NCBI GenBank assembly: GCA_951406725.2 | Contig: OX597822.1 | Span: forward strand, 48,670,001 to 48,734,000 | DNA length: 64,000 bases | DNA from: Octopus vulgaris | Lineage: Eukaryota | Direction: 5' to 3' | Shown: piece by piece, positions 14,944 through 61,869 of the stretch | How the letters are laid out: each line of letters opens with the position of its first letter | How positions within the stretch are numbered: position 1 is the stretch's first letter | Notes under the pieces: generated by a model | Database searches by the model: none | What the model saw: the letters and a program-made list of their open reading frames with translations, nothing else | Told to the model about the DNA's origin: nothing | Made by a program: the position numbers and the translations under genes

Positions 14944-15444
14944 CAGTAATCCTTCGACTAACGCAGACGTTACGTTCCAAAATCTGTCCCCACCCCCACC
15001 CGCGATAGGTGAAACTCCGCGAAGTAGAAACAGTACTGTGTTATATATTGTTTTATTTTTATAATTTGTATATACTTATTTTATTATAAATGCAAAACAA
15101 CATTCTACACTTGCCTCCCGACTTCCATTTTCCGTACAATACGTACGATTCTTTGTTTACTCATCTACGGTACACTACGTATTTTCTTTTAATATATTTT
15201 AATGTGATATACAGTGTAGTACTGCACTGTATTTTTATTTATGAATTCATTAATTTTATACGCGAAAATGCTTCTTTTACCACATGAATAATCAAAATCT
15301 AAGAAAAATATAAATACCTGTCGGCCGCAGAAACCCACGATATACTGACGAGTCCGCGATATGAATATACATTTATTAGCCAGAAAAATCCGCGAGGTAC
15401 TTACTAAGTGTGCGATAGGCGAATCGCGATATGGCGAATGATTA

Positions 15445-15447
<3 letters not shown>
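14944..15447. mobile_element. pogo/Tigger-like (Tc1-mariner) MITE
   Basis: TA-CAGTAATCCTTCG ... CGAATGATTACTG-TA; internal CCGCGA repeats; deleted sister copy at 53978-54183. Confidence 0.8.
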
Positions 15448-15502
<55 letters not shown>

Positions 15503-15559
15503 TAATCATTCGCCATATCGCGATTCGCCTATCGCGCACTTAGTAAGTACCTCGCGGAT
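15388..15559. repeat. 172-bp near-perfect palindrome centred on (TA)n
   Basis: Arms 15388-15444 and 15503-15559 (56/57 complementary). Confidence 0.95.
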
Positions 15560-27365: not shown

Positions 27366-27407
27366 AATAATTACTTTTGTAAATTAGATTAATACTTCCA
27401 TTGAGTA

Positions 27408-28285
27408 ACTAGGTTAATCCTTCTGTAGTGTATCTAGGTTAATCTTTTAATGTGTATCTGGGTTAATCATTTTGTAGTATATCTAGGTTAATCTTCCTGG
27501 AGTGTATCTACGTTGATCTTTTATTGTATGTCAGGATAAATTTTTTCTGGCGTATCTAGGTTAATATTTCGAGTATCTAGGTTAATCTTTTAGTGTGTAT
27601 CTGGGTTAATCCTTTTGTAGTATATCTAGGTTAATCTTCCTGCAGTGTATCTACGTTGATCTTTTATTGTATGTCAGGATTAATTTTTTCTGGCGTATCT
27701 AGGTTAATATTTCGAGTATCTAGGTTAATCTTTTGTGTATCTGTGTTAATCTTTACCTCGTGCATCTACATTAATCTTTCTGTTGTGTATCTAAGTTAAT
27801 CTTCCTGTAGTTTGTCTACGTTCTTCTTTTATTGTGTGTCTGGGTTAATCTTTTTCTCGTGTAATCTAATGTTAATCTTCCTGTAGTGTACGTTAATCTT
27901 TTATTGTGTAGCAGGGTTAATCTTTTTCTAATGTAATCTAGGTTAATCTTCCTGTAGTGTAAGTTAATCTTTATTGTGTATCTGGGTTAATTTGTTTTTT
28001 TTGTGTATCTGGATTAATCTTTTTCTAGTGTAATCTAGGTTAATCTTCCTGTAGTGTACGTTAATCTTTATTGTGTATCTGGGTTAATTTTTTTTTTGTG
28101 TATCTGGATTAATCTTTTTCAAGTGTAATCTAGGTTAATCTTCCTGTAGTGTACGTTAATCTTCTATTGTGTGTCTGGGTTGATCTTCTTATAGTGTAAT
28201 CTAGGTTAATCTTTCTGTAGTGTATCTGAGTGAATCTTTTTTGTATTGTTGGCAGGTTAATACTTTCTGTAAAAAGGTTAATCTT
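27408..28285. repeat. ~24-bp minisatellite (GTATCTAGGTTAATCTT...) with higher-order repeats
   Basis: Monomer core GGTTAATCTT; 143-bp period at 27430/27573/27716; ~96-bp period after 27930. Confidence 0.9.
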
Positions 28286-28472
28286 TCTTCAAGAGAGTTA
28301 AGAAATTATTATTATTATTATCATTTTTTTTTTGTATAACAATCCTTTTTATAAAGACACTAAGCTTATCTAGCAAGCTAAGTGAAGATATGTTAAAATC
28401 TAAGCTTAAAACGAGGCTTCGGAATGCCATATCTTATCTTTTCCTTGCTTCAGTCATTGGACTGCGACCATA

Positions 28473-28922: not shown

Positions 28923-29156
28923 GGTAAAATTACAGATTAACACCCGCACGATTTTGACTAAGAAAAAAAAAAAAAAATCGGATTTTTTGCGTGGAATCAA
29001 GTACCCTGACCTCCTAATATGCTGGAAATCCCATATTTTGGTTCGGAATTGGTCCGGAGGGGGGTTAACCCCCCCCCTCCGGAATTTTCACACAAAAAAG
29101 AACTCTGATTTTTTTTTTTAGTGAAAATCGTGCGGGTGTTAATCTGTAATTTTACC
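28923..29156. mobile_element. MITE with 39-bp TIRs and 8-bp TSD (Merlin/IS1016-like)
   Basis: TIR GGTAAAATTACAGATTAACACCCGCACGATTTT(G/C)ACTAA; perfect TSD GAAAAAGA at 28915-28922 and 29157-29164. Confidence 0.85.
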
Positions 29157-33459: not shown

Positions 33460-33529
<70 letters not shown>

Positions 33530-33709
33530 AAATACAAATGTGCTGCTCCAGCATAGCCGCAGTCAAATGAGTTAAATACGCAAATAACGAGAGCAAAACA
33601 AAAACAAGTAATACAAAAATGACCCACCATCAGTTGTCGGCCGTCAATCTACTCTCTATTTCGAGCACTATATATATATATATATATATATATATGATAT
33701 ATATATATA

Positions 33710-33807
<98 letters not shown>

Positions 33808-33899
33808 ATATATAGAGAAAAAATCCAAACTTACAGGGAAAATTAGATTTAGGATTAAATCCAATTTTATAGTATAAATATATTATATTATATTATATT

Positions 33900-34216
33900 A
33901 AATTAGAGATAAAACCACTATTAGGCAAATCAAACAGTGAAAAACATAAGCCAATACATAAAATTAATTTTAAAATATAAAAGTTAAAAATTAAAAAATT
34001 ATTAAAATAATTTAAACTTATAAATTTTAAATATATATATACAAATATATATATATATATATGTATGTATATTTTTATATTTATATATTATTTTGTTTAT
34101 TAATTAATTAATTAATTTACTTTTTATTTATTTATTTATATTTTTAAATTAATTTTATGTATTGGCTTATGTTTTTCACTGTTTGATTTGCCTAATAGTG
34201 GTTTTATCTCTAATTT
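33900..34216. repeat. Perfect 71-bp inverted repeat in a (TA)n-flanked cassette
   Basis: 33900-33970 is the exact reverse complement of 34146-34216; 175-bp AT-rich spacer. Confidence 0.95.
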
Positions 34217-34217
34217 G

Positions 34218-34270
<53 letters not shown>

Positions 34271-34505
34271 TTAAAAATAGGATAAAATCTTAATAAGAAA
34301 TTATCAGGTAGTTAGCGTGAAAAACCTCATAAGAGAAAAAGTCTGTAAATTTTTTCACTTGAAAATACTTATTTATATTATATAGAGGGCATTATTACAC
34401 ATAAATGCCACACGCTAGGAGGGACTTTTAAAGTCATAACTACCAAAAATAAACAAATCGTACCGAATGCAATTCTCGAAGCGAGACATTTAAAAACAGA
34501 ATTTA

Positions 34506-34569
34506 GTTCCAGATCACCTGTGATTTCGCAATTAACGTATTATCTACGTCTCTTGCTCTTCAGTGAAAC
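34506..34569 (-). ncRNA. Type I hammerhead ribozyme, intact core
   Basis: Minus GUUUCA-CUGAAGA-GCAA(GA GACGUA GAUAA UACGUU AA)UUGC-GAAA-UCAC AG GUGA-UC-UGGAAC; all three stems pair; predicted cleavage after AUC between 34512 and 34511. Confidence 0.88.
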
Positions 34570-34655
34570 GAATTCAAAATATATCATGAATGAACAAAAC
34601 CAACATACCAGGCGGAACCAGACAGACAACCGTCGCCTCCATCGTAGCATATGAA

Positions 34656-34717
<62 letters not shown>

Positions 34718-34830
34718 ATATATATATATTATATTATATATATATATATATATATACATTATATATATATATTATATATATTATATATACTATATATATT
34801 ATATATATATTATATATATTATATATATTA

Positions 34831-34870
<40 letters not shown>

Positions 34871-35148
34871 TATAATATATATATATATTATATATATTTT
34901 ATATAATATATATATTATATATTTTATATATATATAGAATATATATATATATATAGAATAGATATATATATATTATGTATATTATATATATTATATATAT
35001 ATTATATATATTATATATATATTATATATATTATATATATATATTGGTAAAAATGGTAAGACAACAAAAGAATGGAAGAAATCTCGATATTATGTAAATA
35101 GAGGAATTTATTTGTAGAGGTAACATATGACAATTATTCGGTAGCCAT

Positions 35149-35209
35149 GATAAAACTCCGAGTTTCAGATGCCGAGGTGGAAATTCACGCCGCCATCTCT
35201 TCAATTATC
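35149..35209 (-). ncRNA. Type I hammerhead motif, C3U variant
   Basis: Minus GAUAA-UUGAAGA-GAUG...CAUC-U-GAAA-CUC G GAG-UU-UUAUC. Confidence 0.65.
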
Positions 35210-35494
35210 CGGCCATCGGAAAAAATTTTATATATATATATATATATATACACCCCCTACGTGTGTGTGCGCGCGTCTATATCCTTTCAGTGTTTCTCTC
35301 TCTCTCTCTTCTCTCCCTCTCCCTGTATCCAAACCATGCCCAACACCACGTTTGTGTAACAATCCAACAAGGAATATTTAAATATATAACAAATATAGAA
35401 AATAACAGTCTTAAAGAGGTGTAGTTGCAATAAAATATTAAGTTGCTGGAGTTTGAGTATATACATACGAATAAATATTTGTACGGATACATAC

Positions 35495-35542
<48 letters not shown>

Positions 35543-35556
35543 AAGAATATTATTGA

Positions 35557-35599
35557 CAATGACTTCGAAGTTTCGGTCAGTTGAGCCATCGTCTGATTG
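35557..35599 (-). ncRNA. Minimal type I hammerhead motif, U4A variant
   Basis: Minus CAAU-CAGACGA-U-GG...CC-GAAA-CUUCGAAG-UC-AUUG; palindromic stem III. Confidence 0.7.
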
Positions 35600-35730
35600 C
35601 AATACATATGTAGATACAGGGAAGTATGTGCCTGTATGTGTATGCATACATACATACATCCATCCAAACATACATACATACATACATACATACATACATA
35701 CATACATACATACATACATACGTACATACG

Positions 35731-35766
<36 letters not shown>

Positions 35767-35879
35767 TACACACACGAAGTAGCGAGGCGGAGATGGAATC
35801 TCCCGACACAAAATCTTGTCAAGTTAACCGGCGTAACATCAAACTTGCTTAAAAGGTGATCAGACGCATAAAGTTACTT

Positions 35880-36220
35880 TCACTGATGTTATCATTATTA
35901 TTATTATCATTATTATTGAGGATGGTGGTGGTGGTGGTGGTAGTGATGGTGGTAGCCGTGGCTGTTGTTGTACTGATTATTGCTTTTTTTCTTCCTTTTC
36001 ATGTTGATTTTCTTTTTTTGTTTTTTTAATGAACGACACAATTTCGTACTTCAACAATTTACGTTGGAAGCTCTTGGTATTCTTTCTGTTGTTGCTGCTG
36101 TTGTCGTTTTGGCTGCTGCTGTTAATTCTTCTGCTTTTTCTCTTTCTTCTTCTTCTTCTTCTTCTTCTTCTTCTTCTTCTTCTTCTTCTTCTTCTTCTTC
36201 TTCTTCTTCTTCTTCTTCTT

Positions 36221-45310: not shown

Positions 45311-46030
45311 GTATTATTTGTTTACAAAATAAATATAAGATAATATATATAATTGTCAACTTTTATTATATCCATTATATATATTTTTTCCGGTATAAAT
45401 TAATATTACTAAGAAATATTACCGGTTTCTGGTACATTGGAAAGGAAAAAAACTTCTGGTACGCCACAACAGATAATTTGAGAAGCACTGTTGTAGAAGA
45501 CACTCGCCCAAAGTACCAAGCCGTGGGACTGAACCAGAAATCACGTGGTTGCAAGCGCCTTAAGCATACAGCCATGGCTATTTTGTTTTTCATCTGACTT
45601 TTTCATAGCGAGTTGTGCTTGCTAATGGTGTGTGCGTGTGTGTTCAGTTAAAATATATTATCTCGCACCAAGAAGTTTTACTGCAAACTTGAACATCAGC
45701 GAAATGAACAACAGAAAGAACTGATCATTTTCATATACTTCTATGGAATGGCACATTCCACTTGCCAAAAACGGGATCGTTCGTAGTGCAATTTCAACGA
45801 CATGTGCAAGACATCATGCTATCTCTCGAGTTTTGCTTTTATATTTACTGTTTTATTAAAAAATATAACAATTCACATATTAAACTTAACAAAAGTTATG
45901 ATTTAGTATTTCATGTTAAAAACAAAACACAGATTGCTAACACATACACATTCGTATTAGAGGCAGAGGATGTTTAAGCTATAATTCAATATAAACGTTG
46001 AAAAATATTTCCTTTAGAGGCATTACTAAT

Positions 46031-47147: not shown

Positions 47148-47441
47148 GATAGGATAGGATGGGATGGATGGATGGATGGATGGATGGATGGATGGATGGA
47201 TGGACGGACGGACGGACGGATAGATGTATAGATAGATAGATTACAGGATTCTACCTGCCGATGTACACTACACATTCAAATATCTGCGAGTCTTCATTCC
47301 CATCCTTTTAGGTTTTACGTCTCGCTGATGAATGTATTTGGTCACACGAAACTTTCCTGTTTGAACGAAATATTCATTTGAACATTGACATTATGTTTGT
47401 CAGTTAAATATGCTTAATACTCATAACTATCTATCTGTCTG

Positions 47442-49320: not shown

Positions 49321-49589
49321 TACTTATGTATATATATATATATATATATACATATATGTATATATACTTATGTGTATGCCAGTCTATTCATAAAAACCAC
49401 GAGTAATTATCCTCAGGACTTTGTTTATATATAATAATAGTCTTGAACCAACATATCTGCTCTGTCTACAAACTGCTCTCGTCTAACAGCAGACAATAGA
49501 GTCACGTGACGTAGGATTGCAACCTCCAGTCAGCACTGCTCGCTCTATTGTTGGTAGAAACATTCATCCGATCTGATGCTGTTGTATTA

Positions 49590-49745
49590 ACAGAATCGTT
49601 AAAGTGTCTAGGGAACCGTTTTACCGTTTTTCTCTTTTTTTTTTCGTTACACTTTGTTCTGAGTTCAAATCCCGCCACGGTCGACTTTGTCTTTTGACAT
49701 TTTTGAGATCAATAAAACAAATGCTAGTTAGATATTGACCTATTG
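49590..49745 (+). mobile_element. SINE B, diverged
   Basis: CAGAATCGTT...GAGTTCAAATCCCGCCACGGTCGACTTTG. Confidence 0.7.
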
Positions 49746-50011
49746 TAACCGTTTTCTCTGTTGTTTTGTACAAGTTTCAGTCCCTTAGCTACGGTCGGTC
49801 AGTGGTTGTGCAGATGACTGCTATCTAAGCAGAAACACGTGTCTATGGCTGATTTCCTATCTCCAGACAATAAGCCGGTCCTTTTCCTTAATGGCATCTC
49901 AACTTTGAAGATATTTGATTTTTGAGATCGTCTCCCCTTCTCATGTGACGCCGGCCTCGACTGCAATTGGATTATTATGACACTCCAGATCATTTAAATA
50001 AATCAAGAAAT

Positions 50012-50081
50012 TAATTCGAATGGTATTTAATATAGCTATATATATATATATATATAGCTATATTAAATACCATTCGAATTA
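50012..50081. repeat. Perfect 70-bp palindrome centred on (TA)n
   Basis: TAATTCGAATGGTATTTAATATAGC-(TA)n-GCTATATTAAATACCATTCGAATTA. Confidence 0.95.
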
Positions 50082-58879: not shown

Positions 58880-58882
<3 letters not shown>

Positions 58883-59035
58883 AGAAAATGGAGGAATATA
58901 TTCCTTTCAATCATCAACTTCCAGATAATACCAATTCATATAATTTATTAACTAATTAATTAAATAATAAATTATATGAATTAGTATTATCTGGAAGTTG
59001 ATGATTGAAAGGAATCAATTCCTCCATTTTCTTAT
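58880..59035. repeat. Hairpin with 71-bp arms and a 14-nt spacer
   Basis: 58880-58950 vs 58965-59035, 68/71 complementary; abuts (TA)n. Confidence 0.95.
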
Positions 59036-59480: not shown

Positions 59481-59484
<4 letters not shown>

Positions 59485-59703
59485 TTTCATAAGCTTAAAG
59501 CTTATAAGCGATCACTGTGCTATGACTAAAGAAAATAGTCTAATAATGGAGCATATAAGCCTTCGACGGAAAAAAGTAGGTTTTCCCACGTATACGGGAA
59601 AAACCTGTTTTTTTCCGTCGAGGGCTTATATGCTCCATTATTAGACTATTTTCTTTAATCATTGCATAGTGATCGCTTATAAGCTTTAAGCTTATAAAAT
59701 ACT
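59481..59703. repeat. 223-bp near-perfect hairpin
   Basis: Arms of ~107 nt with about 7 substitutions and 1 indel; centre CGTATACG; abuts (TA)n. Confidence 0.95.
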
Positions 59704-61213: not shown

Positions 61214-61460
61214 CATTATGTCACATGCTGCATAGTATTACGTATAATTAAAGTGCATCCATCCAACCCCCATCATCCCGTTATTAAAATAAAAGGGTCA
61301 CCTGATTTCTAATGAAATTTGTAAATCTTAGAAGAGCCCCATGACACAATATGGTTAAGATATTCCGTCTCCGTCTCTACTTCTGTGCGAGTATTTATTC
61401 GCTCGCGTACGCGCGCGTTGACTTTGAAGTAGGCACATATGCGTGTATATATAAAAATAT

Positions 61461-61869
61461 ATCCCAAACTTTGGCATCGAGAGTTACACAAATGCCAGAA
61501 CTGGGCGCCACTGCGTGGTGCCTAGGACTCCAAATTTGCCATCAAGATGTAGGACAAGATACTGTGATAGCCTGGGCTTCCAAGGCCCACAGTTCTTCAA
61601 TATCCTCCCGAAGAACCTAAGAGACCTGCATGGGGTGGATGCAGATGTCTTTAAAATGAAACTGGATCTTTTCTTGTCAGGTATCCCAAATGAACCAACT
61701 TCACGGCAGGAGGTGCAGATGAGGGCAGCTGCATCGAACTCTCTCATGCACCAAATGGCAGTTGCTAAAAAGCATTCGTGAAGTAAAACCATGTAGCAAC
61801 ACCAAATGGCGGTGCCCCAGCATAGCCACAGCTCGTGAGCTGAAACTAGAATCAATCAATCAATCAATC
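61461..61869 (+). mobile_element. 5'-truncated CR1/L2-group LINE 3' end (ORF2 C-terminus, 3' UTR, (AATC)n tail)
   Basis: Open frame IPNFGIESYTNARTGRHC...GPQFFNILPKNLRDL...FKMKLDLFLSGIPNEP...NSL, stop 61779-61781; N.LP...FK..LD motif typical of CR1/L2-group ORF2 ends. Confidence 0.8.

Follow-up and report, generated by a model that had tools for sequence, protein, structure and literature searches.

The window, meaning the whole 64-kb stretch of DNA that was analysed, is repeat-rich, of animal type and cephalopod-like in appearance, with tandem repeats making up 33% of it and dispersed repeats a further 22% in self-comparison. It contains an interval in which hammerhead motifs and a mirror-image insert neighbour one another within a stretch of TA repeats, an arrangement that is already known. 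The features of this interval, together with one element outside it, are as follows (PLE, Penelope-like element).

33669..33814, no strand: (TA)n tract found by TRF; left boundary and presumed insertion target
33815..33872, no strand: one-sided stub of ~55 nt outside the left arm of the fold-back, without a mirror copy
33900..33981, no strand: left arm of the fold-back, without a hammerhead
34135..34216, no strand: right arm of the fold-back, mirror of the left arm
34268..34654, minus strand: cassette 2, one copy of a repeat of very high copy number, interpreted as the 5'-truncated end of a PLE
34499..34575, minus strand: hammerhead of cassette 2, type I, intact core (descriptor motif 34506-34569)
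34655..35044, no strand: degenerate (TA)n tract of 390 nt found by TRF
35045..35228, minus strand: cassette 3, a 184-nt stub whose 5' start lies ~13 nt ahead of its own hammerhead
35142..35215, minus strand: hammerhead of cassette 3, type I, C3U (descriptor motif 35149-35209)
35540..35635, minus strand: cassette 4, a stub of ~95 nt with (TA)n on its left and (CATA)n on its right
35551..35604, minus strand: hammerhead of cassette 4, minimal type I, U4A (descriptor motif 35556-35600)
2164..2894, minus strand: partial-tandem element outside the stack, with an intact-core hammerhead at 2341-2392

These positions bear out the cassette boundaries drawn in an earlier, sequence-only reading of the same DNA: 34268-34654 and 35045-35228 lie between (TA)n tracts, 35540 to ~35635 lies between (TA)n and (CATA)n, and the fold-back with its stub occupies 33815 to ~34220. 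Hammerheads were sought with a type I descriptor that allows at most one core mismatch and demands a stem I of at least 4 bp, of which at least 3 are Watson-Crick pairs, and a short stem III. Applied strictly to both strands of the 64 kb, it returns exactly four motifs (2341-2392, 34506-34569, 35149-35209 and 35556-35600), all on the minus strand. One match appeared in each of five out of 100 block-wise dinucleotide shuffles, a chance expectation of 0.05 motifs per window, and the reversed sequence gave none under the strict descriptor; the frequency of hammerheads in this window is thus above that of shuffled controls. A G-U-permissive form of the descriptor yields six matches where 0.08 are expected (25 shuffles). 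The two additional candidates, 45960-46015 and 49803-49851, are on the plus strand; both are weak, and neither of them is placed directly within a TA tract. The U4A change is common to three of the six relaxed matches, 35556-35600 on the minus strand and the two plus-strand candidates. This sharing probably reflects decay plus chance matches, and may instead mark a lineage-specific variant core. Candidates from a looser scan at 47322, 57187 and 43543 were dropped for failing the short-palindrome or Watson-Crick criteria.

The three stacked minus-strand type I hammerheads reported within 1.1 kb are all present, but only one of them retains an intact core. In the strict set, an intact core with three helices is confined to 34506-34569 and 2341-2392. 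The (near-)palindromic stem III noted earlier recurs in all four motifs, where its pairing between two copies is predicted to yield -9.7 to -12.5 kcal/mol, and in all four stem I can be extended by 4-5 bp past a small loop or bulge. The cassette 2 hammerhead combines a 6-bp stem I and its 5-bp extension with a stem II of 4+6 bp and, as a monomer, a stem III of 4 bp closed by a 4-nt loop. Its cleavage triplet is AUC (GUC-type), with a predicted cut between 34512 and 34511, and its modelled active fold (-15.7 kcal/mol, 2.3 above the MFE of -18.0) suggests that it could fold as a monomer. The cassette 3 motif carries U at core position 3 (C3U) with G8 unchanged; it has an extended stem I and is predicted to be impaired (active fold -18.2, MFE -23.2). 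In cassette 4, which ends ~20 nt past its predicted cut, the core has A at position 4 (U4A), a perfect 10-nt palindromic stem III, and an unpaired U before G10.1-C11.1, a feature also described for PLE minimal hammerheads (PMC4209133); this hammerhead is predicted to be inactive (active fold -2.7, MFE -11.7). The motifs of cassettes 3 and 4 are hammerhead-derived, and their core changes look like decay. Neither U4A nor a C3U that lacks a compensating A8 resembles the reported U3-A8 variant (PMC4209133).

The description of the cassettes as unrelated is mostly correct: no pair of the three stacked cassettes beats shuffles, though cassette 2 faintly shares a junction with 2164-2894. Rescue by heterodimer formation among the three neighbours was considered and rejected: the stem III strands of cassettes 3 and 4 could cross-pair at -7.8 kcal/mol, but their stem I strands form 0 pairs. 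Cross-family stem I pairing amounts to 0-2 pairs, against 4-6 for self-pairing, which leaves the neighbours unable to complement one another. The Rfam search that had been proposed as a check (RF00163, Hammerhead_1) detects none of the four motifs, with no match at the gathering cut-off and, across 33500-35900, 38 matches at E<=10 of which none belongs to a hammerhead family; a check against RF00163 would therefore overlook them. Unconstrained folding produces the active hammerhead for no motif (z of -0.8 to -1.7 for five candidates and +1.4 for 2330-2403) and is uninformative for motifs of this kind. Metagenome contigs searched for an exact match of 27 nt gave none.

The interval is the most TA-rich 2.3 kb of the window (556 nt, where the median is 58) and holds 17% of its TATATA 6-mers in 3% of its length. 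For three of the four motifs to fall within 1.1 kb, the probability is p=0.003 if placement is uniform and p=0.027 if it is weighted by TATATA, the latter before correction for the choice of this window on account of its cluster. The location of the stack in the most TA-rich stretch therefore accounts for much of the clustering, and a residue remains after the weighting. TA adjoins all four clear elements in the window, and new PLE copies reportedly insert next to existing ones (PMC6765202).

Cassette 2 gives access to a large repeat family. Whole or in part, its sequence (34270-34652) occurs in 20 of the 24 runs listed, under four organism labels and from nine studies, and the run search returned no recorded RNA run containing the family. 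Contigs of four runs (X1, X6, X10 and X16) were compared with 34262-34660 at 80% likeness, giving 2,332 family contigs in DNA run X1 and 2,464 in DNA run X6. A further 54 and 108 came from two runs guessed to be RNA, which show neither strand nor locus and are therefore not used as evidence of expression. Summed depth is 364,093 in X1 and 821,114 in X6 at 34402-15, in the 3' part, and 1,784 and 2,900 at 34640-53, 5' of the hammerhead; this is a fall of ~100-fold or more, in contig depth as distinct from copy number, and is as expected of 5' truncation with the minus strand as sense. In X1 the depth drops at the predicted cut, from 101,486 at 34486-99 to 8,680 at 34514-27. In X6, X10 and X16 it drops inside the variable stem II (34528-34555), where subfamilies diverge, which accounts for some of the gradient, and the drop in these three runs is not clean evidence of copies that start at the cut. 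Alternative 3' ends lie at ~34370, a TATATA junction, and at 34268, after a tail of ~100 nt. Loose ends of TA at 34370 are found in 27, 7 and 3 contigs of X1, X10 and X16, and others continue to ~34268-34280; the ~100-nt tail is therefore optional in the family. Among eight joints, each represented by one contig per run, six pass to the opposite strand and one steps back by 219 nt, so other copies of the family form fold-backs and a partial tandem.

Variation within the family follows the helices. The stem I pair 34568/34507 switches from U-A to C-G, with both alleles at 71% of depth in X1 and at a non-matching 38% and 11%, unphased, in X6. An X6 loose end (two contigs) has the stem II pairs 34536/34548 and 34538/34546 swapped on both sides and one G-U converted to A-U. 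Among the 40 variants listed (72 more lie beyond these), the only core position that varies is the free N7 (34559); one subfamily changes G10.1 (34556). These compensatory stem changes indicate that the fold is conserved, and under selection, in the cassette 2 family.

The element at 2164-2894 is probably recent, as its direct repeats of 175 nt are 99.4% identical; it has a unit of ~556 nt, is flanked by TA and contains a TATATA junction. Read on the minus strand, the 5' repeat sets in 7 nt past the predicted cut between 2345 and 2344, a layout that matches the partial tandem of PLE pseudo-LTRs. Its 3' end with the TATATA junction is 79% identical over 42 nt of AT-rich sequence to the inner end of cassette 2 (E 0.006), and the two may be distant relatives. 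A hairpin in the direct repeat (2205-2247 and 2761-2803) duplicates the 5' half of the hammerhead core but lacks the 3' half. For tests of cleavage or circular RNA this element is better suited than the stack.

The mirror-image insert at the left of the interval is a real fold-back, as had been claimed: the left arm (33900-33981) matches the reverse complement of the right arm (34135-34216) with 98.8% identity over 82 nt, and the ~150 nt between them are AT-rich and loosely symmetric. The stub at 33815-33872 could be the 'tail' of a PLE or a truncated end in its own right. A kinship between the fold-back arm and the tail of cassette 2, plausible by eye, did not beat shuffles. Fold-backs are not special to the stack, and the window holds at least five others (15388-15559, 15559-15683/16134-16259, 50012-50081, 58880-59035 and 59481-59703, with 92-100% arm identity), each of different sequence and most of them adjoining or centred on TA runs. 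The window also contains a MITE-like element of ~235 nt at 28923-29156, with 48-nt terminal inverted repeats (96%).

Taken as a whole, the interval is likely a landing pad, in which the 5'-truncated ends of three different PLE families and an inverted doublet were probably inserted successively into one long TA microsatellite. The sequence-only reading had proposed that TA tracts were targeted repeatedly by several Penelope/retrozyme families, and support for this comes from the family data, which concern cassette 2 only, from the anatomy of 2164-2894, and from published features of PLEs. A hammerhead with palindromic helix III is found in a terminal repeat, and partial tandem or pseudo-LTR structure, inverted truncated copies and an optional tail are found for 2164-2894 and the cassette 2 family. 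PLE insertions are described as 5'-truncated and partly tandem, often with an inverted truncated copy, with an optional tail and a bias toward microsatellites (PMC8557442, PMC3846280), and for Naiads a bias toward insertion in (TA)n is reported (PMC8557442). The elements here share 5' truncation, pseudo-LTR partial tandems, inverted 5'-truncated copies, an optional one-sided tail and an apparent AT-rich or (TA)n target with the EN+ PLEs Neptune, Naiad and Penelope/Poseidon (PMC8557442, PMC3846280, PMC11167929). They differ from the published elements in having no ORF and in a tail of ~100 nt rather than 30-40 bp (PMC8557442, PMC11167929). Naiads prefer (TA)n but are without canonical hammerheads, which makes a hammerhead-bearing clade such as Neptune the likelier source. 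Neither a reverse transcriptase nor a GIY-YIG ORF turned up within or beside any cassette, or among 149 ORFs of the window, as expected of truncated ends; we therefore infer PLE membership and the parent elements.

Under such a mechanism, a PLE reverse transcriptase/GIY-YIG endonuclease encoded elsewhere would nick AT-rich DNA, and reverse transcription would begin close to the RNA's 3' terminus and halt early, so that only the hammerhead-bearing terminal repeat is deposited. Each insertion would leave TA on either side and could be targeted again. Purified PLE protein is reported to nick AT-rich DNA and to start reverse transcription at internal sites matching the tail, with hammerhead cleavage described as unnecessary for insertion and dependent on protein (PMC11167929). 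The hammerheads would be cargo of the parent elements, acting in tandem transcripts as homodimers through the palindromic stem III; those of the stack, two of three with changed cores, are solitary and without mutual complementation. PLE-type hammerheads are described as inactive or slow as lone motifs (PMC4209133), and metazoan genomes as normally containing diverse minimal hammerheads by the thousand, solitary and associated with truncated PLEs (PMC4209133, PMC6765202). The present motifs resemble the PLE minimal hammerheads of PMC4209133 in being type I, with a helix I of 4-6 bp, a long helix II and a palindromic helix III, and in forming many sequence families per genome that are mostly solitary and tied to truncated PLEs. 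They differ from that published description in a longer helix III (8-12 nt), in the predicted ability of cassette 2 to fold as a monomer, and in the further 4-5 bp of helix I past a small internal loop.

An origin of the cassettes as monomers of independent non-LTR retrozymes, which are circular-RNA parasites, rather than as truncated ends of coding PLEs is unlikely, although several features would suit it: the ~556-nt non-coding unit of 2164-2894 with a repeat beginning 7 nt past the cut, cassette sizes that overlap the retrozyme range of 51-972 bp given in a preprint that also reports monomers as common (bioRxiv 2026.07.22.740005), and the presence of the cassette 2 family in runs guessed to be RNA. 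Short non-coding units, type I hammerheads, low GC and common solitary monomers are likewise shared with the animal non-LTR retrozymes described so far (PMC7229834; bioRxiv 2026.07.22.740005), from which the locus differs in having no tandem with two complete hammerheads. A head-to-tail array of that kind, by which the preprint recognizes an active retrozyme (bioRxiv 2026.07.22.740005), is absent from the window, where self-BLAST and descriptor scans find one hammerhead per family; cassette 2, moreover, shows a truncation gradient, a tail and inversions rather than a constant unit length. As the preprint derives retrozymes from PLE ends, the two origins differ mainly in name. It is highly improbable that the stack consists of chance motifs or of TA runs that collapsed in the assembly. 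Mis-joining can affect long TA runs, and cassette 2 is not covered from end to end by any listed contig, but a mis-join would touch the adjacency of the motifs only, and for the motifs themselves the shuffle controls and compensatory changes exclude chance.

For the fold-back, a real if lesser possibility is that 33900-34216 is a TA-targeting non-autonomous DNA transposon (MITE or Mutator-like, of the SaTar type) and not an inverted PLE doublet. Near-perfect terminal arms of 82 nt, an AT-rich interior and the lack of a hammerhead would all fit a transposon, and in plants TA-targeted TIR elements unrelated to one another are reported to form non-nested arrays (PMC5907723). The one-sided extension at 33815-33872, on the other hand, fits a PLE tail, the neighbouring cassette 2 family makes inversions of this kind, and several other TA-adjacent fold-backs of differing sequence lie in the same window, all of which argue for the doublet. 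The plant SaTar arrays share with the interval the stacking of unrelated, non-nested elements through TA microsatellite targeting, but are described as Mutator-like DNA elements without a ribozyme (PMC5907723), so that the likeness is one of layout only, except possibly for the fold-back.

With the interval read as a series of truncated PLE ends, the common orientation of its hammerheads calls for comment. The statement that four of four clear motifs are on the minus strand stands for the strict scan and is qualified by the looser one, with its two weak plus-strand candidates. The two-sided probability is p=0.125 for four of four and p=0.69 for four of six, which makes the shared orientation indistinguishable from chance, and chance is probably its cause. 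The orientation had been ascribed to selection against self-cleavage of a plus-strand host transcript, an explanation that finds no support here, given this p of 0.125, the weak plus-strand candidates, the changed cores and the failure to find a host gene in the window. No plus-strand host gene was found there: none of 149 ORFs of at least 45 aa (150 unmasked ORFs less those of low complexity, plus some others, a set that misses shorter exons) reaches the Pfam cut-off, and the single sub-threshold match is at 7668-7817 (E 0.007). The strand balance of other repeats was tried as a guide to host transcription and rejected, with families at 9:9 and 9:8 and a third at 2:6 (merged loci).

That the interval nevertheless lies inside a plus-strand host transcript, from which sense hammerhead insertions were purged since they would cut pre-mRNA, is improbable. 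The minus orientation of all clear motifs would agree with it, as would a cassette 2 hammerhead that could fold alone (a modelled 4-bp stem III, 2.3 kcal/mol above MFE) and the reported under-representation of retrozymes in Xenopus introns and exons (bioRxiv 2026.07.22.740005). Against it, in addition to the p values, are the failure of the 149-ORF Pfam scan to find a host gene or gene direction, the core changes in two of the three stacked motifs, the reported lack of detectable cleavage by a lone minimal motif (PMC4209133), an anole PLE hammerhead that is said to have needed protein and to show no RNA-seq reads ending at the cut site (PMC11167929), and the ~43% of Xenopus retrozymes that are still intronic (bioRxiv 2026.07.22.740005). 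A broader proposal, that TA-targeting PLE families seed introns with monomer-cleaving hammerheads, of the kind that the fold of cassette 2 would allow, and that selection strips sense intact copies genome-wide, is a long shot; if true, ribozyme orientation would read out host transcription, and PLE hammerheads would be shown to cut RNA in vivo. A thin literature search found no published sense/antisense test split by intact and changed cores, and the words 'orientation' and 'antisense' are absent from the retrozyme preprint (bioRxiv 2026.07.22.740005).

What is new at this locus is a set of uncatalogued PLE hammerhead families from one animal lineage, for which the supplements of the cited papers may contain matches. 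The interval illustrates clearly how elements can stack as modules in a TA tract. On the present reading its importance is small, and it would be greater if an orientation bias held genome-wide.

Elsewhere in the window, 49440-50000 is a unique complex sequence with a stretch near 49780 that follows a pyrimidine tract and looks like an exon, and a palindromic motif near 49502 that we take to be E-box-like; a plus-strand promoter or exon is possible there. The ORF at 61455-61778 on the plus strand, which has no Pfam match, has a likely resemblance to the C terminus of a LINE reverse transcriptase. A minisatellite of ~900 nt at 27375-28290 has a basic unit of ~25 nt and shows higher-order periods at 72, 97 and 143 nt.
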